Source: Deltaproteobacteria bacterium
GTDB taxonomy: Bacteria > Desulfobacterota > GWC2-55-46
Direction: 5' to 3'
Length of the DNA: 64,000 bases
NCBI GenBank assembly: GCA_016177845.1
Contig: JACOUO010000030.1
Coordinates: 37,649-101,648, forward strand
Of the stretch, positions 1,768 to 60,426 are shown in pieces (position 1 is the stretch's first letter; each line of letters opens with the position of its first letter). Made by a program: the position numbers and the translations under genes. A model generated the notes under the pieces. The model was given only the letters and a program-made list of their open reading frames with translations. It made no database searches and was not told the DNA's origin.

Positions 1768-2028
1768 TCAGAAATGCCCGGTCTTATGGGGAGCCTTTTT
1801 ACAGACCTGATTGAGCTCTTCCAGAAGTATATATTCGTGGTAATCGTGCATAGCGGCAAGAAATTCAATAGCCTCGGTCTTAAGGCCGGGAACTTTAAAT
1901 ACATTCTCGCCTAAATGCTTTTTGAAGACCGCTTCAGCCTGAGGGCACACATGAAGCACATCTTCTACAATCATCTTTCCGGTGATTACGCCTTCTTCGT
2001 GGTGATGGTGCGAGCTATGACCTGCCAT
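1768..2028 (-). CDS. Small DUF1858-like protein with His-rich N-terminus
   Basis: ITGKMIVEDVLHVCPQAEAVF...LLEELN resembles the DUF1858 pattern; N-terminus HSSHHHHEE; 24 bp downstream of nuoN. Confidence 0.55.
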   Translation of the reverse strand: MAGHSSHHHHEEGVITGKMIVEDVLHVCPQAEAVFKKHLGENVFKVPGLKTEAIEFLAAMHDYHEYILLEELNQVCKKAPHKTGHF

Positions 2029-2052: not shown

Positions 2053-3474
2053 TTAAAACAGCACCTTCGCAATATCCATTACCCAATCGGTGACTGGGCC
2101 AGGATACATGCCAAGGAATATGGTTGCAAAGTTAACGACATAAAGCACCGCACGGCTTGTAAAATCAACGTGGATAGGCGCGGTATTATGGGGAGGCCTG
2201 AGATATATGCTCTTTACGACAAGGAGGAAGTAGTACATGGACACAATCGCCATTACTACGCCGATTACCGCAAGGACCCAGAGGCCTTCCTTTACTGCCG
2301 CGGCAAATATGTAGAGTTTCGCTATAAAGCCTCCAAGCGGAGGAAAACCGGCCACGGAAAGAAGACCTACGAACAATGAGAATGCAAGAAGCGGTGAACG
2401 CCTGCTTAAGCCTGCATATGAGTCAATCAGGTCCGAACCTTCAGAATTATGGAATATTACGATAGCCAGGAAGCTGCCGAGGATACCGAATATGTATGTC
2501 AGCATGTAGAACATGATCGCGCCTGCGCCGAGTGTTGACCCTGCGGCAACTGCCATAAGCAAGTAGCCTGCTGAGCCGATACCCGCATAAGCGATAAGTC
2601 TCTTAAGGTCTTTCTGGGGCATCGCAGCCAGATTACCGAAAATGAGGGTAGCGCCTGAGATTACCGCTACAAATACCATCCACTCAGCCTTTATTCCTCC
2701 AAGGGCTGTAAAGAGTATGCGCATAATCACGACAAAACCGGCTCCCTTTGAGGCAGCGGCAAGAAGCGCTGTCACAGGGGTCGGCGCGCCCTGATAGACA
2801 TCAGGCGACCATACATGGAAAGGGATTGAAGATATCTTAAATGTAAGGCCGATTATCGCAAGAGAAAGCCCGAGTACAAGGAAGCCTGAGCCCGGTGCGG
2901 TCTTAAGGGCTGTGGCTACAGCACTAAAGCCGGTTGCGCCGGTTGAGCCATATATGAAGCTTATACCATATACAAGGAAGCCTGAGGCAAGTGCGCCCGT
3001 TATCAGGTATTTCAATCCGGCTTCAATTGTATTTCTGTTCTCGCTTGTAAACGCCGCAAGAACATAGAGGCATACAGCTACGAACTCAAGAGACACATAG
3101 AAGCTTATGAAGTCAGAGCTTGAGGCAAGCAGCATCATGCCTGCTATTGAGAAAAGAATCAACGAGTAAAACTCGCCTTTCCAGTGCTTGATCTTGTCCT
3201 CATACATCATTGTTATATAAAGGACAAGGACAGCGCACAGGACAAAGAGGGCCTTAAAATAAATCGCGACCTGGTCCTGTATAAAAAGCCCGCCAAGCGC
3301 GCTTCCGGTCTCCTGATAGAGGAGGCTTATTCCTGTGGCTATAGCTCCCAGAATACCTATAACCCCGAAAAACTTTCTTGAACCCCTTGCGATAAAAAGC
3401 TCTATTACAAGGAGGAGAAAAGCCGTTCCGAGCATTATGAATTCAGGGACTACTTTTATAAGATTCATTTCCAT
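2053..3474 (-). CDS. nuoN: NADH-quinone oxidoreductase subunit N
   Basis: Antiporter-like subunit: EAGLKYLI, FKISSIPFHVWSPDVYQGAPTPV, GFPPLGGFIAK; position in operon. Confidence 0.95.
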   Translation of the reverse strand: MEMNLIKVVPEFIMLGTAFLLLVIELFIARGSRKFFGVIGILGAIATGISLLYQETGSALGGLFIQDQVAIYFKALFVLCAVLVLYITMMYEDKIKHWKGEFYSLILFSIAGMMLLASSSDFISFYVSLEFVAVCLYVLAAFTSENRNTIEAGLKYLITGALASGFLVYGISFIYGSTGATGFSAVATALKTAPGSGFLVLGLSLAIIGLTFKISSIPFHVWSPDVYQGAPTPVTALLAAASKGAGFVVIMRILFTALGGIKAEWMVFVAVISGATLIFGNLAAMPQKDLKRLIAYAGIGSAGYLLMAVAAGSTLGAGAIMFYMLTYIFGILGSFLAIVIFHNSEGSDLIDSYAGLSRRSPLLAFSLFVGLLSVAGFPPLGGFIAKLYIFAAAVKEGLWVLAVIGVVMAIVSMYYFLLVVKSIYLRPPHNTAPIHVDFTSRAVLYVVNFATIFLGMYPGPVTDWVMDIAKVLF

Positions 3475-3536
3475 CTTGAAAGCCTCTCATTAATTACCGC
3501 GGTCTTTCACCGCGGTTCAGAAGATCTGTATTCCGA

Positions 3537-5030
3537 TTATCCGAGCGGTACCGCATTGACCCTGTCAACAAGCGGTACGACACCGGTATTGATGATATCA
3601 ACTATGATAGCTGGATAGAAACCGACTACAAGGAGAACCGCTATCAGTATCACAAACGGCATTCTTTCAACAAATGTTGTCGCGTCCTTGATATGGTCCC
3701 ATTTATCCTGCGGCTCGCGGAAGAAGACATCCCTTAAGCACCTGAGCATGTATGTGGCGGTGACAATGATACCGAACACGGCGACAATGGCCTGAATGGG
3801 ATAGTCCTTGAATGCGCCGATAAAGACCATAAGCTCGGCAACGAAGTTTGCAAGGCCCGGCAAACCGCTTGAGGCAAATCCCATTATCGCGAATGCTATT
3901 GATACGAACGGAAGCTTTTTCGCAAGGCCTGAGAAGTCATACATCATACGGGTATGCGCCTGGTCGTAGATGAAGCCTATCAAGGAGAAGGCCAGGGCTG
4001 TCATTATACCGTGTGCGAACATAAGGAGCACCGCTCCGTTTACGCCTATATAATTAACCGTTGCCAAACCAAGCAGGACATAGCCCATATGGCTTGAAGA
4101 AGAATAGCCTATCATGAACTTCATATCCTTCCTGCTCATGGCAACCATGCCGCCGTAAAATATGTTTATCAAGCTTAATACCGCTACCCAGGGCATCCAG
4201 AACTGCGCGCCCTGCGGAAGAAGCCACATAGCCCTGATGATACCGTACGCGCCAAGCTTCATCAGAACGCCCGCATGAAGCATACTGACGGCTGAAGGTG
4301 CGGCAGCATGACCAATCGGCGACCAAGAGTGGAAAGGCGCAAGTGGCACAAGCACCCCGAAGCCGAAGAGCAGCGGCAGGAAAACCTTAATCTGATAGCT
4401 GCCGTCAAATGAGAGCTTTGCTATCTCAAGCATGTCAAAGGTATACACTCCCGTCTGCGCGCCTGAGACAAAGTATATTGAAAGGAGGCCAAGAAGGGCA
4501 AAGAGCGCGCCGAAGCTTAAGTAAAGAGTAAGCTTCATGGTAGCGTATTCCCTGTTGGCGCTGCCCCAGATACCGATAAGAGGATACATCGGGATAACAG
4601 CGAGTTCGTAGAAGAGGAAGAAGCATATCAGGTCAAGTGATTCGAAAACGCCAAACACGCCTGCGACAAGCAGAAGAAGGAATATATAATGCTCTTTGAT
4701 CCTGTGCTTCACGCCTACCCATGATACGAAGACACCGGTAAAGATGACTATCGAGGTGAGCACGACCATGGCTACGCTTATGCCGTCAACCCCAAGATGG
4801 TATGACACTCCAAGGGATTTGATCCATTCGACCTTTTCTATGAACTGGTAGCCGCCTTTTACCTTATCGTAAGCCCACAGGAGGTAGAAAGATAATATCA
4901 GGCAAATCGATGTAGAAACAACCGAGATGGCCCTTATTAGCCCAATCCTCTCCTCTTTTACAAAGAGAAGGATTATAACCGCGATAAGTGGCGAAAGTAT
5001 TAATGCTGATAATACCGGAAAACCTTCCAC
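3537..5030 (-). CDS. nuoM: NADH-quinone oxidoreductase subunit M
   Basis: LGVDGISV, FFLFYEL, PFHSWSPIGHAAAP, LMKLGAYG, GLPGLANFVAE. Confidence 0.95.
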   Translation of the reverse strand: MEGFPVLSALILSPLIAVIILLFVKEERIGLIRAISVVSTSICLILSFYLLWAYDKVKGGYQFIEKVEWIKSLGVSYHLGVDGISVAMVVLTSIVIFTGVFVSWVGVKHRIKEHYIFLLLLVAGVFGVFESLDLICFFLFYELAVIPMYPLIGIWGSANREYATMKLTLYLSFGALFALLGLLSIYFVSGAQTGVYTFDMLEIAKLSFDGSYQIKVFLPLLFGFGVLVPLAPFHSWSPIGHAAAPSAVSMLHAGVLMKLGAYGIIRAMWLLPQGAQFWMPWVAVLSLINIFYGGMVAMSRKDMKFMIGYSSSSHMGYVLLGLATVNYIGVNGAVLLMFAHGIMTALAFSLIGFIYDQAHTRMMYDFSGLAKKLPFVSIAFAIMGFASSGLPGLANFVAELMVFIGAFKDYPIQAIVAVFGIIVTATYMLRCLRDVFFREPQDKWDHIKDATTFVERMPFVILIAVLLVVGFYPAIIVDIINTGVVPLVDRVNAVPLG

Positions 5031-5042
5031 GATAACCTCTTT

Positions 5043-6896
5043 TTAGAATATTACGAATATAATCATCAGGACAAAGACCCCGCCCACCATTACAAGCGTG
5101 TAGTGCTGGAGCTGGCCTGAGATTGTCAGCCTTAAGCCTCTTCCAATCTGCCTGGTGATGTATGCAATGCCGTTGAGAATAAAGTTGATGATTATATATA
5201 CCTCGATAAAGTTTGAGATCTTTGCTATCCCGTTATAAATCTTCTTTACAAGGTAGTTGTCGTATACGTAATCGAAGTAGAACCTGTTCTCAAGGACCCT
5301 GAAAACCTTGGGAAACTTTACTGCAAGTATATCCTCATGCATATCCTTCTTCGAATACAAGGCATAGCCGATGATGATACCCAAAAATACTGCCGCTGTT
5401 GATATTGTCGCTACCGCATAATTGAAGTGGTGCTCGCCTCCGTGACCGTGGCCGCCTCCGATAAAGGTGCCGAAGTTCGGCTCTAATCCCGGAAGTCCGG
5501 CAAGACCGGCAAACACAGCGAATACTGAAAGTACCATAAGGGGAATGGTCATTACGCCCGGCGATTCGTGCGGGTGTCCGTGATATCTCTTCTCCCCAAA
5601 GAATGTTACAAGTAAAAGCTTTGTCATGAACAATGCTGTAATGAAAGCCGTGAACACGCCAAGCCCAAAGAGGAACGTGTCAGCATTATAAGCGGCTGAG
5701 AGTATCTCGTCTTTTGACCAGAATCCGCTGAACGGGAAGATACCCATCATCGCGAAACTGCCCAGCAGGAAGGTTACGGCCGTGACCTTCATCTTGGGGA
5801 AGAGCTTGCCCATGTGCCAGATCTCATTTGTGTGGCAGGCATGGATGACGCTGCCCGCGCCAAGGAAGAGAAGGGCTTTGAAGAACGCATGGGTCGTAAG
5901 GTAGAACATACCGGCGCTTGTGCCGCCGACACCAACGCTCATTACCATGTAGCCGAGTGAGCTGAGTGTTGAATAAGCGATGATTCGTTTTATATCAGAC
6001 TGGCCAAGGGCCAAAAGAGCTGCCATAAGTGCCGTGAAACCACCTATATAGGCGATTGTCATCATTGCGAAGTGCGGTGCCGCGCTGTAGAGGAATGAGG
6101 CCCTCGCGAGCATATAAACACCGGCTGCGACCATTGTAGCGGCATGGATCAACGCTGAAACAGGGGTCGGGCCTTCCATGGCGTCCGGCAGCCATACATG
6201 AAGAGGGAACTGGGCTGACTTACCAACCGCTCCGCAGAATATAAGGAGAGCCGCCAGTCCAAGTGTCGCTGAATCGACTTTGCCGGCCGCTATTATATGG
6301 CCAAGCTCAATGAAGTTGAATGTGCCTGTTGCGTAATAGAGCACAAAGATACCGAGTATGAATCCGAAGTCGCCAACCCTGTTCACAAGGAACGCCTTTT
6401 TGGCGGCATCTGCAGCAGAGGCCTTCTCAAAGTAGAAGCCGATAAGCAGATATGAAGCCAGACCGACAAGCTCCCAGAATACAAAGATCATTATGAAGTT
6501 ATTCGAGAGCACGATGCCCAGCATCGAGAATATAAAGAGGGACAGGCAGGCAAAGAACCTGGAGAAACCGTGTTCTCCGTGCATGTAGCCCCTTGAGTAT
6601 ATATGTATGAGTGAGCCGACGAAGGTTACTATAAAGAGCATTATTATGCTGAGCGGGTCTATAATGGTGCCCATCTCAATAGTCAGACCCTTGACTTGAA
6701 GCCAGGTGAATGACTGCTCTAAGGCCTCCATATGCGGATTGCCGAGCATCTTCAAAAGATACGGGAATACGATAAAGAAGCAAAGTACTATTGCTCCAAT
6801 TGAAATAAAGGAGCTTAAGTCCTCATTCTTCCTGGTTACCAGCGTTATTAAAAGCGCTGCGGCTAGGGGTATTATTAATAAGGCCCAGATATCCAT
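5043..6896 (-). CDS. nuoL: NADH-quinone oxidoreductase subunit L
   Basis: GKSAQFPLHVWLPDAMEGPTPVSALIHAATMV; HAFFKALLFLGAGSVIH. Confidence 0.97.
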   Translation of the reverse strand: MDIWALLIIPLAAALLITLVTRKNEDLSSFISIGAIVLCFFIVFPYLLKMLGNPHMEALEQSFTWLQVKGLTIEMGTIIDPLSIIMLFIVTFVGSLIHIYSRGYMHGEHGFSRFFACLSLFIFSMLGIVLSNNFIMIFVFWELVGLASYLLIGFYFEKASAADAAKKAFLVNRVGDFGFILGIFVLYYATGTFNFIELGHIIAAGKVDSATLGLAALLIFCGAVGKSAQFPLHVWLPDAMEGPTPVSALIHAATMVAAGVYMLARASFLYSAAPHFAMMTIAYIGGFTALMAALLALGQSDIKRIIAYSTLSSLGYMVMSVGVGGTSAGMFYLTTHAFFKALLFLGAGSVIHACHTNEIWHMGKLFPKMKVTAVTFLLGSFAMMGIFPFSGFWSKDEILSAAYNADTFLFGLGVFTAFITALFMTKLLLVTFFGEKRYHGHPHESPGVMTIPLMVLSVFAVFAGLAGLPGLEPNFGTFIGGGHGHGGEHHFNYAVATISTAAVFLGIIIGYALYSKKDMHEDILAVKFPKVFRVLENRFYFDYVYDNYLVKKIYNGIAKISNFIEVYIIINFILNGIAYITRQIGRGLRLTISGQLQHYTLVMVGGVFVLMIIFVIF

Positions 6897-7198
6897 TAAT
6901 ACCTCATATCATTGAGTTCTTCGACATTTATGGACTTTCTGCTCCTGTAGACATTTACCAGGATGGCGAGTCCAATCGCCACTTCCGCCGCCGCAACCGT
7001 TATATTAAAGACGACAAGCACGGTGCCGTTAAGCGTTTGCAGATAGTATGAAAAAGCAGCCAAGCTTATGTTAACCGAGTTGAAAATCAACTCAAGCGAC
7101 ATCAATACTATAATGATGCTCCTGCGAAGCAATACTCCCGCAACACCTATTGAGAAGAGTATGAAGCTTAGTATAAGAAAGTGTGTTAAAGTGACCAT
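6896..7198 (-). CDS. nuoK: NADH-quinone oxidoreductase subunit K
   Basis: MSLELIFNSVN, TVAAAEVAIGLA; 100 aa with three TM segments. Confidence 0.95.
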   Translation of the reverse strand: MVTLTHFLILSFILFSIGVAGVLLRRSIIIVLMSLELIFNSVNISLAAFSYYLQTLNGTVLVVFNITVAAAEVAIGLAILVNVYRSRKSINVEELNDMRY

Positions 7199-7223
7199 TT
7201 TTATCTCTTATGCCCTTTTTATT

Positions 7224-7739
7224 TTAGGCCTGCTTGCCTTTTTTCTCTTTCAATACAAGGACGATAGCCCCGACAAGCGCAATAAGGAGCAGGAGCGAAA
7301 CTACTTCAAACGGGAATATATACTGTGTAAAGAGCGATTTTCCTATAACTTCTGTGTTCTTTGAAAGAGCCTCTTCAGTGAACTTTCCAAGCGGTACCGT
7401 TATCCTGCCCTGCGACACCAGATAACCCATTGTGGCAAAAAGCGCTATTACGGTTACGATTGCCGGGATCGCCTGTGTATGGAGATGTTCCTTGAACTGC
7501 TCCTTTCCAATGTCGAGCACCATGACCGCGAAAAGGAACAGGACCATTACGGCGCCGACATACACAAAAACCTGTACCGCCGCAAGGAATGGCGCCCTGA
7601 GAAGGATAAATATCGCCGCTACCTGCAAAAAGCAGACAATCAGGTAGAACGCGCTATGTACCGCATTCCTTACTGATACGACCATTACTGCCGAGATAAT
7701 GGCAAGTATGGAGAAAATGTAGAAAAATATTTGTTCCAT
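7224..7739 (-). CDS. nuoJ: NADH-quinone oxidoreductase subunit J
   Basis: NAVHSA, QVFVYVGAVMVLFLF, FPFEVVSLLLL. Confidence 0.95.
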   Translation of the reverse strand: MEQIFFYIFSILAIISAVMVVSVRNAVHSAFYLIVCFLQVAAIFILLRAPFLAAVQVFVYVGAVMVLFLFAVMVLDIGKEQFKEHLHTQAIPAIVTVIALFATMGYLVSQGRITVPLGKFTEEALSKNTEVIGKSLFTQYIFPFEVVSLLLLIALVGAIVLVLKEKKGKQA

Positions 7740-7792
7740 TTGAAATCAGGCGGGGTTTTATGCCCCCGTACTCCCTTGAGTTTTTGTTGTGC

Positions 7793-8371
7793 TTACCAGG
7801 CCCGCTTCTTTGAGTTCGACAGATCGGGCACAACCTTTATGCCTTCAGGCGTCTTCTCGAATTTCGCCTTTACTATAAATCCGCCTTCTATGCTTTCGGG
7901 CACTGACTGCGGCTTAAGGAGCTCTTCTCTCTCTTTTACAGTGCATTTTGAATCTGTACAGGCAAGCTCATATTCCCTGCCGAGCCTCAAAGCCCTTGTC
8001 GGACATGCATCTTCGCAATAACCGCAGAAAAAACATCTTACAAGGTCAACCTTCCAGACTTTAGCTACCCTGTCCGCTATACCCCTGCCTGTATCGTCTT
8101 CCATCGGAATGACTGTTATACAGCCGGTCGGGCAGGCCTTCGAACAAAGTTCGCAGGCAACGCAAAGCTCTTTGCCGCTTGCATCCCTGTTAAGGGTGTG
8201 CAGGCCTCTCCACCTTCTGTGGGGTATCCATTTCTCCTCGTCCGGGTACTTAAGAGTAATACTCTTGGAGAGATTGTAGCCGAGGGTTATGGTAAGTCCC
8301 TTCATGAAGTCCGTGAAGAGAACCCTTTTTATCATGTCCATCAAATTGAAGCTGTTTTTATTATCGCTCAT
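7793..8371 (-). CDS. nuoI: NADH-quinone oxidoreductase subunit I
   Basis: Two CxxCxxCxxxCP motifs (CVACELCSKACP, CFFCGYCEDACP). Start placed at ATG 8371, which overlaps the nuoH stop (ATGA), rather than at the track's 8431. Confidence 0.93.
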   Translation of the reverse strand: MSDNKNSFNLMDMIKRVLFTDFMKGLTITLGYNLSKSITLKYPDEEKWIPHRRWRGLHTLNRDASGKELCVACELCSKACPTGCITVIPMEDDTGRGIADRVAKVWKVDLVRCFFCGYCEDACPTRALRLGREYELACTDSKCTVKEREELLKPQSVPESIEGGFIVKAKFEKTPEGIKVVPDLSNSKKRAW

Positions 8372-9399
8372 ATCCGTAAAAGCCCTGTGATAAGGATGTT
8401 TACCAGTGAGATGGGTATCAACACCTTCCATCCTATTGTCATCAATTGGTCATATCTGTATCTGGGCAGCGTGAACCTTATCCACATGAAGAAGTAGATG
8501 AATGCCGCCACTTTAGCCACGAGCCAGAAAATAGGCGGTATTGGCAACGGGATGTTTAAAGGTGAATGCCAGCCGCCGAAGAAGAATATTACCGAGAGTA
8601 TTGAAACTGTTACCATCGCGATATACTCGGCGAGCATGAAGAAAGCGAATCTCATGCCGCTGTATTCGGTATGAAAGCCTGAGGCCAATGTACCTTCGTC
8701 CTCTGTCAAGTCGAACGGGATACGATTGATCTCGGCAAGTGAAGCTATGAAGAATATCATGAACCAGACCGGCCCGACAGGCAGGTAGAATATATTCCAG
8801 CTAAGTATTCCGTTGCCCTGGTCGTTTACTATGTCAACAAGGCTTAAGGAGTTCGCTATCATTACGACGCCGATTGCTGCGAAGCTTATCGCGATTTCGT
8901 AGCTGATCATCTGTGCGGATGAACGAAGACCGCCAAGGAGCGCGTATTTACTGTTTGAGGCCCAGCCGCCAAGTATCAAGCCGTAGATGCCAAGGCCTGA
9001 GATGGCAAGAATGTAAAGGACTCCGACATTCATATCCGATATGTAAAGCGTTACTTCCTTGTTGATGAACGGAATCATCAGCTTATCGCCGAACGGGACT
9101 GCGACAAAGACTGCGAAGGCAGGGACCATTGAAAGAAGCGGCGCAATCTTAAAGAGGAATTTATCAGCCTTATCCGGAATGATATCCTCTTTGAAAAGGA
9201 GCTTTATCATATCGGCAAAGGGCTGCAGCAAACCATGGGGGCCTACCCTCCACGGGCCAAGCCTTACCTGGATATGGCCTGCTATCTTCCTCTCAAGCCA
9301 TGTAAGAGGCAAGGGAAGACCGAAGAGGATCATGGTCACGACCCCTACCTTTACAAAAATCAATAGCACTTCTAATATAGTTGAAATATCTGGCATCAT
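8368..9399 (-). CDS. nuoH: NADH-quinone oxidoreductase subunit H
   Basis: WLERKIAGHIQVRLGP, GLLQPFADMIKL, RSSAQMISYE, PFDL.E...EYSGMRF. Confidence 0.97.
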   Translation of the reverse strand: MMPDISTILEVLLIFVKVGVVTMILFGLPLPLTWLERKIAGHIQVRLGPWRVGPHGLLQPFADMIKLLFKEDIIPDKADKFLFKIAPLLSMVPAFAVFVAVPFGDKLMIPFINKEVTLYISDMNVGVLYILAISGLGIYGLILGGWASNSKYALLGGLRSSAQMISYEIAISFAAIGVVMIANSLSLVDIVNDQGNGILSWNIFYLPVGPVWFMIFFIASLAEINRIPFDLTEDEGTLASGFHTEYSGMRFAFFMLAEYIAMVTVSILSVIFFFGGWHSPLNIPLPIPPIFWLVAKVAAFIYFFMWIRFTLPRYRYDQLMTIGWKVLIPISLVNILITGLLRI

Positions 9400-9448
9400 C
9401 AGGTTTTATCTTCTGTTTTATTGTTACTTCTGCTGCTTTTGGGGCGGA

Positions 9449-9925
9449 TTATCTTCTTCTGCCCCACATGTAGTTGATCATCTCGATATATCTTGAGTTC
9501 ATACCGCGTACTATCGAATGAATGGTGAAGACGATGTTCTTAAGAAGCTTGTAGATTATCCTCGGGTTTCCGTCAACAAGGGTCTCAAACTCAGCCTTAT
9601 CCATTACAAAAGTCTCGAGGTCAGATACCGCGACTATTGTTGCTGAACGGGGCCTTCCGTCAAGGAAGCTCATCTCGCCGAAAATATCTCCGTCCTTCAT
9701 TATTGTAAGGGTAAAGAGCTCTCCGTCAGGAGCGGTCTTGCAGGCCTTTACCTCGCCTTTTCTGATGATGTAGAGGGCTGCGCCGTCCTGTGATTCCTTG
9801 AATACGGTCTCGCCGAGGTTGAAATGCTTCTGCTTTACAACCTTTGATACAACTTCGAGCTCATTATCCGAAAGGTCAGCAAAAAACGGAATTTCTCTAA
9901 GTAACTTCGGATCGACCATGTTCAC
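9449..9925 (-). CDS. Stand-alone cyclic nucleotide-binding domain protein (no HTH)
   Basis: LYIIRKGEVK and FGEMSFLDGRPRSATIVA phosphate-binding cassette; 158 aa, ends after the C-helix. Start GTG 9925 or ATG 9919. Confidence 0.88.
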   Translation of the reverse strand: MNMVDPKLLREIPFFADLSDNELEVVSKVVKQKHFNLGETVFKESQDGAALYIIRKGEVKACKTAPDGELFTLTIMKDGDIFGEMSFLDGRPRSATIVAVSDLETFVMDKAEFETLVDGNPRIIYKLLKNIVFTIHSIVRGMNSRYIEMINYMWGRRR

Positions 9926-9993
9926 CCCACCTCTCTTTAAGGCAGATTAACTTCTAATCTATTTATATTTGCTTTATGTCTTATATATGAAGA

Positions 9994-12510
9994 TTAAGCT
10001 TTTGTTATGCCGACTCTGGGGATGTCGTCACCCCTCCTGAAGAACTTGCCTATCGGCGCATCATCGAAGTTCTCGCCTATGAAGGCCACTCCGCTCTTTG
10101 TGCCTCTTTTTGTCCTGAGTGTCAGTGTTGCCTCATATGCCCTGCCCCTGACCTTTACCCTGTCGCCGTTCTTAAGGCCCAGCGAATTGGCGTCCTCTTC
10201 GCTTATCTCAACCTCTCCGCCCTGCACAAGCCCAAGAAGCGTCCTTGACATCCTTGAGTATTTGCCTGAATGGAAGAGATGGTTTCCGGTGACAAGCTGG
10301 AAAGGCGCATCAGGCGTCTTTCTCTCTACTTTTGTCTTAAACTCCCCTATTGAGAGGGCCGCTGAATCAGCTGCCGCTACAAGGGAGGCCTTGTTATCAA
10401 GCTTATTCTCAGTGTTTTTCCTGTTATTGAACAAGAGGTTCACATCCTTGTACATCGGGACTTCTTTTCTTATCTCATCGAGTACAAGAAGGGCGTTCTT
10501 GGGGCCGAAAGAGCGGTCAAAATGCTCGCCAATAGCCCTTATTATATCGATATCCTTCTTTGCCTTACCGGGTGTGGGGAGGAGCTTCTTGATAAGCTGT
10601 GCCCTTCCTTCCTGGTTTGTGAATGTGCCGTCCTTCTCGCCAAAGCTTGAGCCCGGCAATACCACATGAGCAAGTTTCGCTGTATCCGTAAGGAACATAT
10701 CCTGCACTACAAGGAATTTAACCTTCTGCAGGGCTGATACCGCAAGCTCCTGCTCAGGATACATGGAAGCTATATCCGAACCTATAACATAAAGTACATC
10801 AAGCTGATTGTTCTGAGCGGCCAGAAGCATGCCGTCTACTCCACGGCCTTTTTCCCTCAGCTCCGAGTAACCAGGGCCGAAGTTCGGGTGTACGCCCATC
10901 TCCCATGCGCCCCTCTGGTTAGCCCTGTCAAGGGTAGGCATTACAAGGACCTTCTTGCCAAGCGACTTAAGTATGTTCTTAAGCGCCGCAAGCCCTATGG
11001 TGCCTTCCGGGAACCTGAGGAACTCAGTTCCCGCGATAATGCTTACGGTTGAAGAAGCGTGCAGCTTCTGTGCGATTGTATTTATTTCACTGTCCTTTAC
11101 CCCTGCAAGGGTAAGGAGGTCTTCTATCCTGGAGTCCTTTAATGCCTTGACTGAATCGTTATTGGCAAGCTTATCCGCATTTGCCGCAAATACACCGAGT
11201 GCAAGCGAATTAAGCACTGCGTTCTCTGTGCCGGGATTATGCCTTAAGAGCGTATTGGCTGATGAATCCAGCTTCATTGCCCTTGGTGAGGCAATGATGA
11301 GGTTCATCCTCCTGTTTGCGGATATGCGCCTTACTATGTAATCCGTTACCGGGTTTTCATCTGATAAATGTGAGCCTATTACAAGGACAGTGTCCGCTTC
11401 AAGGCAGTCGAATACGGAAACCCCGCCTTCGTTCATACCTGTTGCGGCAACATAGCTTTCAACCGCGTTCTGCTCCCACCTTGAGGTTGAGTCAATATTG
11501 GGGCTCCTCAATACTCCCCTTATAAGCTTCTGGAAGAGATAAAGCTCTTCGTTGGTAAGCCTCGGTGAAGCGATACCGCCTATGTGAGCGCCATTCGTTG
11601 ACCTGACATTTTCTACTATCGTATTTATGGCTTCTTCCCATGTAGCGGGCTCAAGCCTGCCTGATTTTCTGATAAGAGGTGTTGTCAGCCTCTCGGGGTG
11701 GTTTACAAAGTCAAACCCGAACCTGCCTCTTGCGCAAAGGGTCTCGCTGTTAAGGCCCACTCCAAGCTGTGCCTTTGCCCTTAAGACCACGCCGTCCCTC
11801 TGCTCTATGACCATTCTGCAGCCTACACCGCAGTATGAACATATCGTGTCTGAGCCTTTCAGGTCCCACGGCCTTGCCTGATACCTGTAGGGCAGCCTCA
11901 TGAAGCAGCCCACAGGGCATACTTCAATGCAGTTTCCGTCCTGATCGCAGTCAAGGAAGTGCCTGAAAAAGCTTGAAGGCTCCTGATGGTCGCCTCTTCC
12001 GAGCGCGCCAAGGACATTTGCGCCTACGACCTCGCGGCATACCCTTACGCACTTCATGCACTGTACGCAGCGGTTTGAGTTCTTTATGATAACGGGGCTT
12101 AACTGGTAATCTTTTTCATGGAATTTGAATTTGGGCTCTGAATGCCTTCCTGTGTGCGGGCCAAACTTATATACCATATCCTGCAGTTCGCACTCGCCGC
12201 CCTTATCGCAGACAGGGCAATCCATTGCATGATTGGCAAGCAGGAACTCAAGCATGGATGACCTTGCGGACATTACCTGCTGTGTTTCGGTATTGATGCT
12301 CATGCCATGGAGCACGGGAGTTACGCAGGAGGGCTGAAGTTTTTTCTGCCCTTCTATCTCAACGAGACACATCCTGCATGAGCCGACACCCACAAGGTCT
12401 GCCTGATAGCAGAAAGTTGGTATGTCGTAACCCGCGTCCCTTGCGGCGTCCAGTATAAGGGTATTATCCTCTACTGTTATCTCTTTGCCGTTTATTTTTA
12501 CAGTTACCAT
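9994..12510 (-). CDS. nuoG: NADH-quinone oxidoreductase subunit G (long form)
   Basis: N1b (FCY...GSCRMC...SC), N5 (HAMDCPVCDKGGECELQ), N4 (RCVQCMKC...CP), N7 (CSYCGVGC...LC), plus a molybdopterin-oxidoreductase-like C-terminal part. Confidence 0.95.
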   Translation of the reverse strand: MVTVKINGKEITVEDNTLILDAARDAGYDIPTFCYQADLVGVGSCRMCLVEIEGQKKLQPSCVTPVLHGMSINTETQQVMSARSSMLEFLLANHAMDCPVCDKGGECELQDMVYKFGPHTGRHSEPKFKFHEKDYQLSPVIIKNSNRCVQCMKCVRVCREVVGANVLGALGRGDHQEPSSFFRHFLDCDQDGNCIEVCPVGCFMRLPYRYQARPWDLKGSDTICSYCGVGCRMVIEQRDGVVLRAKAQLGVGLNSETLCARGRFGFDFVNHPERLTTPLIRKSGRLEPATWEEAINTIVENVRSTNGAHIGGIASPRLTNEELYLFQKLIRGVLRSPNIDSTSRWEQNAVESYVAATGMNEGGVSVFDCLEADTVLVIGSHLSDENPVTDYIVRRISANRRMNLIIASPRAMKLDSSANTLLRHNPGTENAVLNSLALGVFAANADKLANNDSVKALKDSRIEDLLTLAGVKDSEINTIAQKLHASSTVSIIAGTEFLRFPEGTIGLAALKNILKSLGKKVLVMPTLDRANQRGAWEMGVHPNFGPGYSELREKGRGVDGMLLAAQNNQLDVLYVIGSDIASMYPEQELAVSALQKVKFLVVQDMFLTDTAKLAHVVLPGSSFGEKDGTFTNQEGRAQLIKKLLPTPGKAKKDIDIIRAIGEHFDRSFGPKNALLVLDEIRKEVPMYKDVNLLFNNRKNTENKLDNKASLVAAADSAALSIGEFKTKVERKTPDAPFQLVTGNHLFHSGKYSRMSRTLLGLVQGGEVEISEEDANSLGLKNGDRVKVRGRAYEATLTLRTKRGTKSGVAFIGENFDDAPIGKFFRRGDDIPRVGITKA

Positions 12511-12535
12511 AAGTAATTTCCTGACCGTGCCCTGT

Positions 12536-13801
12536 TTATCTGCCGGATACCATACATCTCTTGTGGTCTATATGGTATTGGAATTCCTCTCTGAAGTTCT
12601 TAAGCGCCCCTCTCAGTGCCATTACAGCTCCGTCTCCGAGCGGACAGAAAGTCCTGCCGAATATGTTTGTGCAAAGGCTTTCAAGAAGCTCTACATCTCC
12701 GGGCTTGCCTTCTCCGTGCTCTATCCTTCTGAGCACATTGGTAAGCCAAGGCGTACCGTCACGGCACGGCGTGCATTTTCCGCAGGATTCGTGGCTGAAA
12801 AATCTGTTTACTATATAAGCCGTCTTGACCATGCAGGTCGACTCGTCCATTACAACGACCGCGCCTGAACCGAGCATCGAGCCTTTTGCGGCAAGCGAAT
12901 CAAAATCAAGGGGTGTATCAAGGTCCTTGGGGGTCAGCATCGGGGCGCTTACGCCTCCGGGGATAACTGCCTTAAGGGGTTTATCAGTAAGCATCCCGCC
13001 GCAATGGTTATAGATGAGGTCCCTTGCTGTCGTGCCCATCGGGAGCTCGTAAAGGCCTGGCCTCTTTACATGGCCGCTTACGCAGTATATCTTCGGCCCC
13101 GGGCTCTTCTCAGGCCCTATCTTTGAGAACCATTCAGGCCCTTTCTCTATGATTGCCGGTATGCATGAAAGTGTTTCAACGTTATTGATGACTGTAGGCT
13201 TGCCGTAAAGACCTGCCAAAGCAGGGAAAGGAGGCTTCTTTCTCGGCTGCGCCCTGTAGCCTTCGATTGATTCAAGAAGGGCTGTTTCTTCACCGCATAT
13301 ATAGGCTCCGAAACCCCTGTGTACATACATATTAAGATTGAAGCCGCTGCCCTGAATATTCTTTCCGAGATATCCCTTGGCATATGCCTCTTTAATCGCT
13401 GCGTCAAGCCTGTTGGCGCCGAATGCAAACTCGCCTCTTATATAGATATAGGCATTTGAGGCGCCTATTGCATAGCAGGCTATTGCCATGCCTTCTATAA
13501 GGAGGTGCGGATCGTTATCGATGATACCCCTGTCCTTGAATGTCCCCGGCTCTCCCTCGTCAGCATTGCAGCAAAGGTACTTCGCGATTGTCGGGTCCTT
13601 GGGTATAAAGCTCCACTTAAGGCCTGTTGAGAAGCCGGCTCCTCCTCTACCCCTGAGCCCCGAGTCCTTGACCATCTGAATGATGTTGTCGGGCTTAAGC
13701 TTAAGGGCAGACTCGAATGCCTTATATCCCCCATATTGTATATAGTTCTCTATCTTATGGGCGTCAGGCTTGTCTAAATTTTTTAAGAGTATTTTTTCCA
13801 T
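12536..13801 (-). CDS. nuoF: NADH-quinone oxidoreductase subunit F
   Basis: SGLRGRGGAGF, NADEGEPGTFKDR, GAYICGEETAL, ESCGKCTPCR...CPLG. Confidence 0.97.
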   Translation of the reverse strand: MEKILLKNLDKPDAHKIENYIQYGGYKAFESALKLKPDNIIQMVKDSGLRGRGGAGFSTGLKWSFIPKDPTIAKYLCCNADEGEPGTFKDRGIIDNDPHLLIEGMAIACYAIGASNAYIYIRGEFAFGANRLDAAIKEAYAKGYLGKNIQGSGFNLNMYVHRGFGAYICGEETALLESIEGYRAQPRKKPPFPALAGLYGKPTVINNVETLSCIPAIIEKGPEWFSKIGPEKSPGPKIYCVSGHVKRPGLYELPMGTTARDLIYNHCGGMLTDKPLKAVIPGGVSAPMLTPKDLDTPLDFDSLAAKGSMLGSGAVVVMDESTCMVKTAYIVNRFFSHESCGKCTPCRDGTPWLTNVLRRIEHGEGKPGDVELLESLCTNIFGRTFCPLGDGAVMALRGALKNFREEFQYHIDHKRCMVSGR

Positions 13802-13851
13802 TTTTAAAATATGTTTTCAGAACGATTTAAAATGCGTGCCCCGGCTTTGAA

Positions 13852-14322
13852 CTATTCAAGTTTGCGCAGGAGTTCATCAATTTTCTGTTCAGTCAAGTTC
13901 TCGTGGAAATCGTCGTTTATCTGCATCATCGGCGCGGTACCGCATGAGCCGAGGCACTCAACAGTTGACAGGGTAAACTTCTTATCGGAAGTCGTCTCGC
14001 CTGTTTTGACATTTAAGGCCTTCTCCATGTGCTTTATGAGATGCTCGGCGCCAAGGAGCGAGCAGGAAATGTTCCTGCATACCTGAATGTGATACTTGCC
14101 TATAGGCTTATTTATCTTATACATGGTATAGAAGGCGGCTGCGGCATTTACTTCAACCAACCGCATATCAAGCATCCTGCCGATCTCCTCCATATCAGGC
14201 TTCTCAAGGTGTCCGCCCCCGTCCTGCTGGGCTATCCTCAAGGCGTCCATGACAGCGGACCTCTTGTTCGGATACTTCTGCATTGCAGCTTCTATTTCTT
14301 TTTTCGCTTTTTCTGACAGCAT
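13852..14322 (-). CDS. nuoE: NADH-quinone oxidoreductase subunit E
   Basis: VCRNISC...VECLGSC N1a [2Fe-2S] motif. Confidence 0.95.
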   Translation of the reverse strand: MLSEKAKKEIEAAMQKYPNKRSAVMDALRIAQQDGGGHLEKPDMEEIGRMLDMRLVEVNAAAAFYTMYKINKPIGKYHIQVCRNISCSLLGAEHLIKHMEKALNVKTGETTSDKKFTLSTVECLGSCGTAPMMQINDDFHENLTEQKIDELLRKLE

Positions 14323-14348
14323 GGTTTTATATTTTTCTTTTTAGTTTT

Positions 14349-15542
14349 TTACTTGTCGCACTCGCCGAAGACCGGGTCAAGGCTTGAAACTATAGCTACG
14401 ATATCAGCCAGGTACCTGCCTTTGGACATATGGTTTACGGTCTGCAGGTTCATGAATGATGGCACCCTGAGCTTAAGTCTGTAGGGCTTCTCCGAACCGT
14501 CGCTGACTATATATACTCCAAGCTCGCCTTTAGGAGCTTCTATTGCCGAGTAAACTTCACCCTTTGGAACCTTGAAGCCTGTTGATACATATTTAAAATG
14601 ATGGATCAAGGCTTCCATATTTGAATAAACATCGGGCTTTTTAGGAGGCACTATCTGCGGGATATCGACATTGAACGGGCCTTCCGGCATATCTCTGAGG
14701 CACTGCTTGATTATGCGCATCGACTGCCTCATCTCAGCCATCCTGACGAGGTAACGGTCAAAACAGTCGCCGTTCTCTCCTACAGGCACGTCAAAATCGA
14801 CCCTGTCATATACGAGATAAGGCTCATCCTTCCTTATGTCCCACTTCACACCGCTTGCCCTGAGTGACGGACCGCTAAGTCCGAGGGCTACCGCCTCTTC
14901 GCCTGATATTACGCCTACACCCTTATTCCTCTGTATCCAGATCCTATTGCCCGTAAGGATTGTCTCGTACTCGTCAAGCCTCTTGGGAAGGACCTCAAGG
15001 AGATTATTGCAGGCTTCCTTGACTTTATCGGTAAAATCATATCTGACTCCTCCGACACGGAGGTATGAAAGCGTCATCCTCGCGCCGCAGAGGGATTCGA
15101 ATATATCGAGCACTATCTCCCTGTCCCTGATGGCATAAAGGAGTATTGTCATTGCGCCAAGATCAACTGCCCATGCGCCTACTCCGAGGAGATGGCCTGC
15201 TATCCTTGAAAGCTCGGAAGCTATTACCCTTATATATTTGGCTCTCTCGGTTATCTCTATATCAAGGAGCTTTTCAACTGCCTGAACATACGCCAGGTTA
15301 TTTGTCATGGCGCACATATAGTCGAGCCTGTCTGTATAAGGCACAAACTGATGATAAAAGAGATTTTCCGCAAGCTTCTCAGTACCCCTGTGGAGGTATC
15401 CGATATCGGCTTCCGCGTTTATGATCCTTTCACCCTGCAGGTCCAGTATCAGGTGCAAAACACCGTGAGTGGAGGGGTGCTGAGGCCCCATGTGCAGAGT
15501 TACCTCTTGCGTAGTTATTATGTTATCTTTTGTATCAGGCAT
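14349..15542 (-). CDS. nuoD: NADH-quinone oxidoreductase subunit D
   Basis: GPQHPSTHGVL, GYLHRGTEK, DRLDY, EAPKGELG, DPVFGECDK. Confidence 0.97.
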   Translation of the reverse strand: MPDTKDNIITTQEVTLHMGPQHPSTHGVLHLILDLQGERIINAEADIGYLHRGTEKLAENLFYHQFVPYTDRLDYMCAMTNNLAYVQAVEKLLDIEITERAKYIRVIASELSRIAGHLLGVGAWAVDLGAMTILLYAIRDREIVLDIFESLCGARMTLSYLRVGGVRYDFTDKVKEACNNLLEVLPKRLDEYETILTGNRIWIQRNKGVGVISGEEAVALGLSGPSLRASGVKWDIRKDEPYLVYDRVDFDVPVGENGDCFDRYLVRMAEMRQSMRIIKQCLRDMPEGPFNVDIPQIVPPKKPDVYSNMEALIHHFKYVSTGFKVPKGEVYSAIEAPKGELGVYIVSDGSEKPYRLKLRVPSFMNLQTVNHMSKGRYLADIVAIVSSLDPVFGECDK

Positions 15543-15587
15543 ATTCCGAAACTTTTATCCCGTTTAACGGGTTATTTTTTTAAAACC

Positions 15588-16091
15588 CTATTCCTTTTCA
15601 ACACCGTAAGGATTGTAGCGGTCCTTGTAGCCCCTTACAGGATATTCCTTGCGAAGCGGGAACCCTTCAAAATCCTCCGGCAGGTAGATACGCTTCAAAT
15701 TCGGGTGCCCTTCAAAAACAATCCCGAACATGTCATAGACTTCTCTCTCAGGCCAATCAGCGCCGTGCCAGATACCGGCAATAGAGGGCACTGTCTCCCC
15801 GTCGTTGACCTTTACCTTAAGCCTTATCCTCAGCTTTTTCGAAGTTGAGTAGAAGTGATAGACGACCTCAAATCTTGGCGTTTCGGTATTGTAGTCAACC
15901 CCTACAACATCTGAAATAAAGTTCATCTTTATTTCGGGATCAGTCTTTAAAAAGGTGCATATGCTGCGCAGCGCGCTCATTTGAATAAGATGCGTCACTT
16001 CGCCCCTGAATACGGTTGTCTCTATAATGTCGTGCCTGAAGGCCGACTGTATTTTTTTGATTAAGAGTTCGTCTCTATCTACAGGAGTCAT
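15588..16091 (-). CDS. nuoC: NADH-quinone oxidoreductase subunit C
   Basis: [23 protein letters not shown]...GFPLRKEYP. Confidence 0.96.
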
Positions 16092-16657
16092 TTGCCTACT
16101 CCGATCTTTCTTTTATCAAGGATATACGGGTTTTCCTTCTTGATCTTCTCCATAAGCTGGAGGAAGCCGAAGAGGAGCGCGTCCGGCCTTGGCGGGCATC
16201 CCGGCACATAGACATCCACCGGAACAACAAGGTCTGTGCCCTGTACGACGGAATAAGTATTATAAGGCCCGCCTGCAGAGGCGCAACCGCCCTGCGCTAT
16301 GACCCACCTGGGCTCAGGCATCTGGTCATAAAGCTTTTTGACTGCGGGGGCTATCTTTTTGGTCATTGTACCGGCTACTACCATTACGTCCGACTGACGG
16401 GGTGAAGGCCTGAACACTATACCCATCCTGTCAAGGTCGTAGCGTGAGCACGCGGCAGCTATCATTTCAATGGCACAGCATGCCAGACCAAAGGTCATGG
16501 GCCACAAAGAAGAGGAACGACCCCAGTTGACCACATCGCCGGTAACGGTGTTTTCCTTGATTGTATTGATGACGGGATTATTCCTTAATACATCCGCTAT
16601 GCTTTCAAGCGTTGTAAAAAAGATAGAATCTTCGATTGGATTTTTCCCTGTAACCAC
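16088..16657 (-). CDS. nuoB: NADH-quinone oxidoreductase subunit B
   Basis: [27 protein letters not shown]; GTG start. Confidence 0.96.
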
Positions 16658-16721
16658 AGAATTACCTTCAAAAAATTAATTTATTTACTGCCAAGCCGCT
16701 CTTACCTGAAGCCGGGTAGAA

Positions 16722-17087
16722 TCAAATCCATTCAAGCGCGCCCTTGACCCATGCGTAGATGAGCCCGACGGCGAGAACGGCAATAAATACAAACATCTCC
16801 ACAAAGAGGAACATGGATATGCTATGGTCGGTTAATATTACAGCCCAGGGAAAGAGAAAGAGAGTTTCAACATCAAAGACGATAAAGAGTATGGCGATGA
16901 TAAAGAAGTGAATCCTGAAATGCCCGGTATTGGCGTCCCCTACAGGCTCCATACCGCACTCCCAAGGAGTAAGCTTTTCCTTGTAAGGGTTCTTGGGCTG
17001 CATGATGAAGCTCATAAAAAGAGCCATGACGCCCATGAAAGACGCGAACCCGATCATTATGAGAATTGGCAAGTAAGAAAGAAGCAT
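16722..17087 (-). CDS. nuoA: NADH-quinone oxidoreductase subunit A
   Basis: PWECG, ILFIVFDVETLFLFPWA, GALEW. Confidence 0.96.
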   Translation of the reverse strand: MLLSYLPILIMIGFASFMGVMALFMSFIMQPKNPYKEKLTPWECGMEPVGDANTGHFRIHFFIIAILFIVFDVETLFLFPWAVILTDHSISMFLFVEMFVFIAVLAVGLIYAWVKGALEWI

Positions 17088-17283: not shown

Positions 17284-18075
17284 TTACAGTAAAAAAAGGT
17301 CTTTTCTTCTATCTTTGAAGAGATTATTCAGGGGTGTAATGTCCTTGGTGCGGGCCTTTTTGGGGTCGATTTCCACTACCCCGGCCTCCGGTTTCCGTCT
17401 TCCTGCCCTGCAGAGCACCTCTCCGTTGAATGCAGTGACCTGGCTGGTGCCTATGAACTTAAGCTCTTTTCCCTTTATCCTCTCCTCTGTGCCGACCCTG
17501 TTCGCTGTGATTGAAAAAATCCTGTTCTCAAGCGACCTCGTTATCATGGCCTGAGGGCAGTACGGCAGCACAAGGTTTGAAGGGTGCAGAATTACCTCAG
17601 CCCCTTTAAGGGCAAGCGTCCTTGCGGCCTCAGGGAAGACCCAGTCAAAGCATATCATCATGCCGACCTTGGCCTTTCCAATGTCATAGACCTCAAACGG
17701 TGTATCTCCGGGGCTGAATATCTTCTTCTCGTTCCAGAAAAGGTGCGCCTTCCTGTATACGCCTATGAACCCTTTGGGCCCTACGAGTATGGAAGAATTA
17801 AAGACCTTCCTCTTTACCTTCTCATTTATCCCCGCCGCAATAAACATCTTCTTCTTTTTAGCCACTTCTATCAGACTTGCAGCAGCGTATCCAACTTTAG
17901 CGTCCTCGGCAAGGCTCATCGCCTCTTCCTTTGACCTAAACTGGTATCCTGTTGAAAAAAGTTCCGGCAGGACTACAAGTTCGGCATCGAGTGAGCTTAA
18001 CCTGGCCACAGCTTTATCGACATTGGCCAGGATGTCCCCGAAAACAGGCAGGGTCTGAATGAAACCGACTTTCAT
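17284..18075 (-). CDS. Nitrilase/carbon-nitrogen hydrolase family protein
   Basis: Catalytic triad contexts LPEL (Glu), YRKAHL (Lys), ICFDW (Cys); ANRVG. Confidence 0.9.
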   Translation of the reverse strand: MKVGFIQTLPVFGDILANVDKAVARLSSLDAELVVLPELFSTGYQFRSKEEAMSLAEDAKVGYAAASLIEVAKKKKMFIAAGINEKVKRKVFNSSILVGPKGFIGVYRKAHLFWNEKKIFSPGDTPFEVYDIGKAKVGMMICFDWVFPEAARTLALKGAEVILHPSNLVLPYCPQAMITRSLENRIFSITANRVGTEERIKGKELKFIGTSQVTAFNGEVLCRAGRRKPEAGVVEIDPKKARTKDITPLNNLFKDRRKDLFLL

Positions 18076-31308: not shown

Positions 31309-31502
31309 GCAAAAAAGAAAGCGAATTTAAACCCAAAAAGGGGATCAAAAGACAGTTCTTCGGCTGCGTGCTCCTTTCGCTTGGTTTTCTCAATACTTTA
31401 TTATCGGTAAGGGCGGGTGTTGAGCCGGGCTGGTTTAATTATCTGATGATAATCTTCGGTTCGATATTTTTAGGCACAGGCATATGGCAGGCGCGCTCTT
31501 AA
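31305..31502 (+). CDS. Hypothetical small membrane protein (2 TM)
   Basis: GTG start overlapping the rSAM stop (GTGA); basic N-terminus plus two hydrophobic segments. Confidence 0.6.
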   Translation: MSKKESEFKPKKGIKRQFFGCVLLSLGFLNTLLSVRAGVEPGWFNYLMIIFGSIFLGTGIWQARS

Positions 31503-37167: not shown

Positions 37168-37501
37168 GATGTCCATAACAAAAAGCATGCTTGAGATAAT
37201 CAAAGACGAGATGGATAAAAGCAAAGTCTCTCAGCTCAGAAGCGTTCGGATTAAAGTCGGGGAACTTACGGCTGTAGAGCCTGATGCGCTTAGGTTCTGC
37301 TTTGAGGCATCCACAAAAAACACCCCACTGGAGGGAGCTTCCCTTGAGATTGAGGAAGTGCCTTTGAAAGGGAAATGCCGCAGGTGCGGAAATAAATTCA
37401 GGATAGAGGCATTCGTAAGCCGATGCCCTGAATGCGGCGGCGCTGATATAGAAAAAATATCAGGCACTGAACTTGATATAGTCTCGATAGAGGCTGAGTG
37501 A
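37160..37501 (+). CDS. hypA: Hydrogenase nickel incorporation protein
   Basis: MHE start at ATG 37160; CRRC and CPEC. Confidence 0.93.
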   Translation: MHEMSITKSMLEIIKDEMDKSKVSQLRSVRIKVGELTAVEPDALRFCFEASTKNTPLEGASLEIEEVPLKGKCRRCGNKFRIEAFVSRCPECGGADIEKISGTELDIVSIEAE

Positions 37502-37520
37502 TTACGGAGGATTTTGCAAA

Positions 37521-40514: not shown

Positions 40515-40517
40515 AAT

Positions 40518-41824: not shown

Positions 41825-41841
41825 AATCAAATAGGAGTAAT

Positions 41842-49125: not shown

Positions 49126-49146
49126 ACTGTAAACAATTTCAAATAC

Positions 49147-60421: not shown

Positions 60422-60426
60422 GATTT

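Follow-up and report, generated by a model that had tools for sequence, protein, structure and literature searches.

Complex I of bacteria is generally regarded as an enzyme of 13 to 14 subunits that is regulated mainly by transcription. Supernumerary subunits are known from T. thermophilus, where Nqo15 and Nqo16 belong to complex I and Nqo15 sits beside the N-module. Extra open reading frames (ORFs) also occur within nuo and nqo operons, such as the URFs of Paracoccus and pcd and nhaD of Rhodothermus marinus; to our knowledge, none of these has been reported to be retained in one constant place by many species. In mitochondria, cAMP controls complex I by way of PKA, which phosphorylates subunits such as NDUFS4. 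Homologues of NDUFS4, NDUFS6 and NDUFA12 in P. denitrificans and an NDUFA9-like subunit in M. smegmatis are further complex I supernumeraries (10.1101/2025.03.13.643058). Two genomic surveys of complex I, one of them that preprint, make no mention of a gene of the kind described here, and literature searches combining CNB (cyclic-nucleotide-binding) domains or cAMP with nuo or complex I found no such arrangement. Judging from these searches, a family of CNB receptors that is specific to complex I operons appears to be previously undescribed.

Such a gene lies in a 64,000-nucleotide stretch of DNA from a Deltaproteobacteria bacterium, the whole of which we refer to as the window. An earlier note on this DNA had described an ORF for a cyclic nucleotide monophosphate (cNMP)-binding protein between nuoG and nuoH, co-oriented with them, and had placed it in an otherwise canonical nuoA-N operon. 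Both descriptions were borne out, the first by the ORFs, Pfam and NCBIfam; the ORF is on the minus strand, and the nuoA-N cluster around it is complete and co-oriented. Here, we will refer to the gene as cnb. Direct domain scans covered NuoG, NuoH and NuoI, and the other nuo genes were assigned from their translations, their order and labelled homologous operons. The features of the cluster, all on the minus strand, are as follows.

2053-17087, minus strand: the whole nuoA-N cluster (translated ORFs, order of the genes, homologous operons with Pfam labels)
16722-17087, minus strand: nuoA
16088-16657, minus strand: nuoB
15588-16091, minus strand: nuoC
14349-15542, minus strand: nuoD
9994-14322, minus strand: N-module block nuoE-F-G, with nuoG last
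13852-14322, minus strand: nuoE
12536-13801, minus strand: nuoF
9994-12510, minus strand: nuoG, 838 amino acids (TIGR01973, E=1.9e-149; Pfam domains)
9920-9993, minus strand: spacer between nuoG and cnb, with the Shine-Dalgarno sequence GAGAGGTGGGG (sequence)
9925, minus strand: alternative GTG start of cnb
9449-9919, minus strand: cnb, a 156-amino-acid stand-alone cyclic-nucleotide-binding protein (ORF, PF00027, homologue lengths, AF2 model)
9629-9682, minus strand: phosphate-binding cassette FGEMSFLDGRPRSATIVA, residues 80-97 (aligned to CRP)
9452-9565, minus strand: C-terminal helix, residues 119-156, with the family signature ...RGMNSRYIEMINYMWGRRR (AF2 model, conservation)
9449-9451, minus strand: cnb stop codon
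9400-9448, minus strand: spacer between cnb and nuoH, with a small hairpin across the cnb stop codon
8368-9399, minus strand: nuoH, 343 amino acids (PF00146, E=1.7e-120)
7793-8431, minus strand: nuoI
7224-7739, minus strand: nuoJ
6896-7198, minus strand: nuoK
5043-6896, minus strand: nuoL
3537-5030, minus strand: nuoM
2053-3474, minus strand: nuoN

Further genes flank this cluster. Just upstream of nuoA is a carbon-nitrogen hydrolase gene (17284-18075, minus strand), which is also found in this position in two related loci, L001 (67% identity) and L083 (60%). Directly 3' of nuoN, an ORF for an 86-amino-acid His-rich protein (1768-2028, minus strand) has a weak, sub-cut-off match to DUF1858 (E=0.0067), and a homologue (43% identity, PF08984) likewise follows nuoN in the distant operon L085. 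Possibly, this ORF is another accessory gene that is conserved in the nuo cluster. An apparent extension at the N-terminus of NuoI was also considered as a docking site; it is probably an artefact of ORF calling, since relatives align only from about residue 29 onward.

The remainder of the window holds several other respiratory and mobile gene sets. A row of genes at 31499-36181 on the minus strand encodes a 616-amino-acid protein with a partial match only to cytochrome bd subunit I, a 180-amino-acid ORF without a family, a 254-amino-acid c-type cytochrome, and a 511-amino-acid protein with two cytochrome c domains and an ethylbenzene-dehydrogenase-like haem domain; this row may specify an atypical terminal oxidase. 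Two neighbouring genes at 28925-31308 on the plus strand, for a tandem universal stress protein and a radical SAM/SPASM enzyme, each end in a PCP_red domain (PF08369). A hydrogenase maturation set (a HycI-type protease, HypB, HypF, HypD and a HypE-like protein) lies at 36667-42858 on the plus strand, and the scanned ORFs of the window were found to include no structural genes for a hydrogenase. Two tRNAs were the only known RNA elements found in the window. One of them marks the start of a probable integrated mobile element at 49049-63777, which comprises the following.

49049-49125, minus strand: tRNA-Pro(CGG), start of the element
49147-50238, minus strand: tyrosine integrase
51529-52284: helix-turn-helix (HTH) protein
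53185-54876: DNA methylase, restriction-modification-like together with the helicase
54876-57563: ResIII helicase, restriction-modification-like together with the methylase
59057-60421: TraH
60427-63777: 1,116-amino-acid ORF

The cnb gene had been read as 158 codons from a GTG at 9925. The ORF itself stands, but its start is most likely the ATG at 9919, giving 156 codons, since this ATG is preceded by GAGAGGTGGGG and the listed homologues begin with MVDPK or MIDPK and are nearly all 156 to 158 amino acids long. The longer ORF (9449-9925) is separated from nuoG by 68 bp (9926-9993) and from nuoH by 49 bp (9400-9448), in agreement with the earlier note; counted from the ATG, the gap to nuoG is 74 bp. 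The GC content of cnb (0.463, compared with 0.47 to 0.51 in its neighbours) indicates a native composition.

We examined both spacers for signals that would set cnb apart as its own transcription unit. RNA structure in the spacer after nuoG is not notable (z=-1.2). At the other end, a hairpin of the form GGGGC...GCCCC encloses the cnb stop codon (9440-9465, minus strand; -13.4 kcal/mol, z=-2.7); it is not followed by a U-run and, when its conservation was looked for in 79 relatives, none was found, so we rejected it as a terminator. Terminator-like hairpins are present in a few relatives with long gaps (L029 and L037). A consensus scan found no promoter or terminator on the coding strand in either gap of the window, its total counts over 8 to 13 kb being at chance level, and an own promoter or terminator for cnb was rejected for lack of a coding-strand consensus. 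In other genomes, cnb overlaps the nuoG stop or the nuoH start by 4 to 10 nt (L030/31, L050, L053, L073 and L081), and in L085 the gaps around it are only 10 and 4 bp, making a separate cnb transcription unit implausible in those genomes. The possibility raised in the earlier note, that the gene has its own promoter and terminator, thus found no support in the window gaps or in the gene overlaps of several genomes, and cnb is presumably co-transcribed with the nuo genes.

The cnb protein contains a single recognizable domain. PF00027 (cNMP_binding) matches residues 33 to 118 (E=1.4e-22; 79.9 bits, with the Pfam gathering score at 27.5) and was the sole family in the Pfam scan, which detected no second domain and no HTH. 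We found no dedicated NCBIfam model for cnb; sub-threshold partial matches were to proteins with CNB domains, such as CRP, Pat and 2B encapsulin, and the CRP/FNR models match in their N-terminal part only, far under cut-off. The AF2 model (pLDDT 84.7) comprises a CNB beta-barrel followed by a single continuous helix at residues 119 to 154. In this model and in Foldseek comparisons, the protein has the eight-stranded beta-barrel with flanking helices of CNB domains and the combination of a CRP-like sensor domain with a long C-helix. Foldseek matched it with probability 1.00 to the CNB domains of CRP, PKA-R and PKG, the best matches being M. tuberculosis CRP and GlxR, in each case over the sensor domain and the C-helix (E~1e-11, 27 to 29% identity). 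The nearest solved chains by sequence are likewise CNB domains of PKA-R, PKG and CRP, and neither complex I entries nor close cnb relatives occurred among the PDB sequence matches and the listed Foldseek matches.

Two elements of this protein stand out by their conservation. The first is the phosphate-binding cassette, which had been reported as intact in a protein without an HTH; the Pfam scan and a residue check confirmed both points. In the 156-residue numbering, FGE occupies residues 80 to 82 and RSA residues 91 to 93, with G81/E82 and R91/S92 aligning to G71/E72 and R82/S83 of CRP, and the canonical contacts G81, E82, R91, S92 and A93 are all kept. The second is the 36-residue C-terminal helix, which is near-invariant across the family and carries the signature R-x-M-N-x-x-Y-x-x-M-x-x-Y-M-W-G-R. 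Mean column identity is 0.91 in the cassette, 0.85 in the C-helix, 0.78 in the barrel and 0.64 in the N-terminal helices. Within helix residues 134 to 156, only positions 135, 142, 145, 148 and 155 vary, forming one narrow stripe, and most of the helix circumference is therefore probably buried against a partner. Residues R138, M140, N141, Y144, M147, Y150 and M151 are retained even in members with 31 to 37% identity. There is no winged-helix DNA-binding domain, as the chain ends at residue 156 right after the C-helix. We also considered Cys60 and His134, which had appeared invariant, as a metal, haem or redox site and dropped this idea because both are lost in deep-branching members. Thus, cnb is a real gene, and its 156-amino-acid product is built like the sensor half of CRP.

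The earlier note had proposed a survey of nuo operons for this insertion, which could have turned out to be sporadic. A protein search with cnb returned 353 clusters at E<=1e-5, and homologues of 155 to 158 amino acids occur in several hundred 90%-identity clusters. The best 120 of the 353 clusters are 156 to 172 amino acids long and 72 to 100% identical to the window protein, and their named sources are all metagenome-assembled genomes (MAGs) labelled Deltaproteobacteria or Thermodesulfobacteriota. A scan of GTDB with one genome per species identified cnb relatives in 135 genomes, of which the best 80 matches (60 to 88% identity) were analysed as loci; 45 are labelled "Deltaproteobacteria," 20 Thermodesulfobacteriota and 7 Nitrospirae or Nitrospiraceae, with single loci labelled Olavius Delta 1 symbiont, Desulfobacterales and "Proteobacteria." Every titled carrier is an uncultured MAG, and the carriers include groundwater and sediment Thermodesulfobacteriota or "Deltaproteobacteria" as well as Nitrospirae-labelled MAGs. 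For one cnb relative, the index of the assembly collection lists 104 blocks.

The genomic setting of these genes is constant. Using the window Nuo proteins in tblastn, we found the order nuoE-F-G-cnb-H-I-J on one strand in 80/80 loci as far as their contigs reach, with median gaps of 64 and 60 bp. The same placement between nuoG and nuoH recurs in 8 to 10 further loci (L001, L002, L083 to L087 and L089 to L091), so the insertion is not sporadic. In all 80 genome loci and 11 further loci, cnb is within a nuo-type cluster; on the 1-kb contig L088, the sole visible neighbour is a nuoE-like gene. An exhaustive profile search of 1.84 billion representatives returned four full-length single-domain clusters (P0187, P0220, P0243 and P0297), and nearly all other top matches were multi-CNB proteins that score on the barrel alone. 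By these searches, the cnb family is small and sharply bounded. Every inspected member adjoins complex I-type (nuo) genes at an edge of the nuoE-F-G block, and no fusions of cnb to Nuo subunits appeared in the homologue lists.

Several variants were seen along the way. The 339-amino-acid protein P0265 is a tandem two-domain relative with a degenerate C-terminal helix motif after each CNB domain. Two MAGs each have two cnb-bearing nuo loci, OFTM14 (L065 and L083, 71 to 73% nucleotide identity) and NC_groundwater_1707 (L005 and L014, 85%), which could be paralogous operons or mixed bins. Many cnb-bearing operons (L001, L083, L089 and L090) have an unusual membrane arm downstream of nuoK, consisting of a NuoL-like gene of about 505 codons, an 83-amino-acid ORF, an antiporter-like gene of about 590 codons and at least two further Proton_antipo_M genes. 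We take this arm to resemble the extra-antiporter ("2M") complex I of Chadwick et al. 2018. Unlike these four loci, the window operon has standard nuoL, nuoM and nuoN genes.

The most divergent members indicate which of its neighbours cnb is tied to. Members with 43 to 48% identity are still directly upstream of nuoH (P0243 in L084, P0337 in L085, P0220 in L087, and L091). At 35% identity, L092 and L093 have the order nuoA-B-C-D, cnb, nuoE-F-G-H. At 36%, the cnb gene of L088 has non-coding DNA on its 5' side and the NuoE-like gene on its 3' side. At 32%, L094 has nuoC-D-E-F-G, then cnb, then a second set of NuoE-like, NuoF-like and NuoG/FdhA-like genes, and here cnb overlaps the start of the NuoE-like gene. 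In this arrangement (L094, 1-11198), the second set encodes proteins of 193, 608 and more than 763 amino acids, respectively, the NuoF-like protein carrying two extra 4Fe-4S motifs, and no nuoH-N genes were found within 4.7 kb downstream. Thus, cnb follows nuoG in the clade of the window and precedes nuoE in deep branches, and the placements in L088, L092, L093 and L094 identify the nuoE-F-G (NADH-oxidising) block, not nuoH, as its constant neighbour. In these four loci, the link between cnb and complex I-type genes survived relocation of the gene. Gene order in the same four divergent loci, on which the argument for the N-module rests, points to the NuoE-F-G module rather than NuoH as the partner of cnb.

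To gauge the constraint on cnb, we compared it with the nuo genes around it. Mean identity to the window across the loci is 71.8% for cnb, 78.5% for NuoF, 74.8% for NuoD, 72.8% for NuoH, 67.0% for NuoK, 64.5% for NuoI, 63.2% for NuoE and 57.2% for NuoG; by this measure, cnb is as conserved as core subunits. Median dN is 0.199 for cnb, 0.18 for NuoH and 0.38 for NuoG, and dN/dS of cnb is about 0.03 to 0.1, like that of core subunits, these ratios being approximate because dS is saturated. Pairwise distances among cnb proteins correlate with those of NuoD, NuoE, NuoF, NuoG and NuoH (Mantel r of 0.74 to 0.81, reached by 0/500 permutations), which indicates that cnb diverged together with the operon and was not exchanged independently. 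Taken together, purifying selection and co-divergence with the Nuo subunits support cnb as a functional member of the operon. The reading of cnb as non-functional, whether as a neutral or selfish insert or as an ORF called in error, has nothing in its favour and virtually no chance of being right, being excluded by the conservation data: the several hundred clusters, the low dN/dS, the conserved synteny, the co-divergence with the operon and the native composition.

Our best reading, which we think about 45% probable, is that cnb serves complex I as a lineage-specific accessory or regulatory factor, docked by its helix on the N-module and coupling nucleotide occupancy to it. The data establish the gene with its fold and motifs, its strict synteny, the purifying selection on it and its co-divergence with the Nuo subunits. 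Beyond this, we infer that cnb is co-transcribed, which ligand it binds, that it binds physically to its partner, that this partner is the N-module, and in which direction it acts. The protein would be made from the same transcript as complex I, and the near-invariant C-terminal helix would serve as its output element, docking on NuoE, NuoF or NuoG, possibly with cnb as a CRP-like dimer. Occupancy of the nucleotide pocket, by cAMP or cGMP in the case of the window protein, would then be coupled to the activity, assembly or attachment of the N-module. The earlier note had suggested a co-expressed accessory or regulatory factor that could couple cAMP or cGMP to complex I assembly or activity, an idea that is partly supported: synteny, selection and co-divergence strengthen the operon membership. 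The deep branches point to NuoE-F-G, not NuoH, as the likely partner.

A bolder version of this model makes cnb a stoichiometric fifteenth subunit and complex I a second-messenger-gated enzyme, which we consider doubtful. Binding of cAMP or cGMP would then cause the C-terminal helix to turn the NADH-oxidising N-module on or off. Alternatively, cnb would control which NuoEFG-type electron-input module attaches to the membrane enzyme, a choice hinted at by L094, in which two EFG sets flank cnb.

Whether the pocket holds a cyclic nucleotide at all is a separate question. Across 82 members, the cassette Gly is present in 82/82 and the Glu in 80/82, and the phosphate-binding Arg is present in 60/82 and replaced by His in the other 22/82. 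This His is found in most deep branches, including P0220, P0297, L091, L092/93 and L094, and the Glu is lost in P0243 and L094. Such losses mean that cNMP binding may not be a conserved function of the family, and a cyclic nucleotide is not certain as the ligand of the family as a whole. The remaining cassette positions are nearly invariant, so that a ribose-phosphate-type ligand is still likely. A nucleotide cyclase was also considered as part of the cnb neighbourhood and rejected, none having been found among the scanned ORFs of the window.

These observations bear on the rival that we rate highest, in which the ligand is not a 3',5'-cyclic nucleotide but, for example, a nucleoside, AMP or ADP, or an NAD-related compound, or the pocket is purely structural; cnb could then still be a complex I accessory, but no receptor for cAMP or cGMP. 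The Arg-to-His replacements and the two Glu losses favour this reading, as does the occurrence, among the structural matches, of trypanosome PKA-R domains solved with inosine or guanosine. We nevertheless regard it as unlikely for cnb, since the window protein retains all canonical contacts, the near-invariant cassette argues for a conserved ribose-phosphate site, and a His can still bear a positive charge.

Another possibility is that cnb acts only during biogenesis, as a nucleotide-gated assembly factor or chaperone for the N-module or the peripheral arm that is absent from the mature enzyme. Synteny and conservation speak for this as much as for the accessory protein docked on the N-module, and the position of cnb where the N-module genes meet the remaining operon, as well as the lack of such a protein in solved complex I structures, would fit. 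The overlap of cnb starts or stops with structural genes, seen in some genomes, would equally fit its production alongside them as a subunit, and the complex I assembly factors known to us lack a CNB fold, none having one of the cnb type. The present data do not separate an assembly factor from the docked accessory protein, and we hold the former to be quite improbable.

We see an equally slim prospect that cnb, although expressed together with complex I, is a soluble signalling protein with its role elsewhere, for instance as a CRP "decoy" or a cAMP buffer. As a decoy, it would form heterodimers through its C-helix with full-length CRP/FNR regulators, and either form would report the level of complex I expression to a regulon. 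The architecture is indeed that of a CRP sensor and dimerisation helix minus the DNA-binding domain, and by our reading the conserved helix has a heptad-like hydrophobic pattern and an invariant Asn. However, cnb stays in nuo clusters in which NuoG has diverged to 32 to 33% identity and keeps to the edge of nuoEFG after relocation, whereas a free regulator would be expected to wander. The distal helix is also more conserved than a plain two-stranded coiled coil would need.

If the favoured reading of cnb as a complex I accessory protein is true, a receptor domain encoded in the complex I operon would bring respiratory NADH oxidation under direct post-translational signalling control. The presence of a conserved cnb in the complex I cluster suggests that a second messenger acts directly on the enzyme. 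The gene is fixed in nuo operons in at least 135 species-level genomes (80 loci examined) and conserved like core subunits. Moreover, its product is small, soluble and defined, and it can be produced and assayed although the hosts have not been cultured.

Among known proteins, those of the CRP type (E. coli CRP, M. tuberculosis CRP [Rv3676] and C. glutamicum GlxR) share with cnb the barrel, the G-E...R-S-A cassette and a long C-helix; over the barrel, cnb and E. coli CRP are 29% identical. Unlike them, cnb stops after the C-helix and lacks the winged-helix DNA-binding domain, its longer helix bears a near-invariant motif, peculiar to the family, whose tail is aromatic and basic, and its gene is fixed inside nuo operons. 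Gmet_1532 (PDB 3mdp) and Mfla_1926 (PDB 3gyd) are stand-alone single-domain CNB proteins of similar size (query-normalised TM 0.73 to 0.75), yet they are only 22 to 25% identical to cnb, and for neither are we aware of a published function or a nuo setting. The family 2B encapsulin shell protein, mycobacterial Pat and the Bd1971 EAL enzyme, which appeared among the sub-threshold NCBIfam or PDB matches, use a CNB domain as an allosteric module and show that such domains can gate enzymes and large assemblies. In these proteins, the CNB domain is fused to its effector, whereas cnb is a separate polypeptide.

On the side of complex I, the bacterial supernumerary subunits resemble cnb in being lineage-specific extra proteins tied to the enzyme, cnb being so tied by its gene position. 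Its fold is unrelated to those of Nqo15, Nqo16 and the NDUFS4, NDUFS6, NDUFA12 and NDUFA9 homologues (PF00027; Foldseek), and none of the known supernumerary subunits is a second-messenger receptor, unlike the putative role of cnb. The URFs of Paracoccus and pcd and nhaD of R. marinus are, like cnb, co-oriented extras inside complex I operons but belong to other protein families. The mitochondrial PKA route resembles the putative role of cnb in connecting a cyclic nucleotide with complex I. It takes an indirect path via a kinase, whereas cnb places a receptor domain in the enzyme's own operon.
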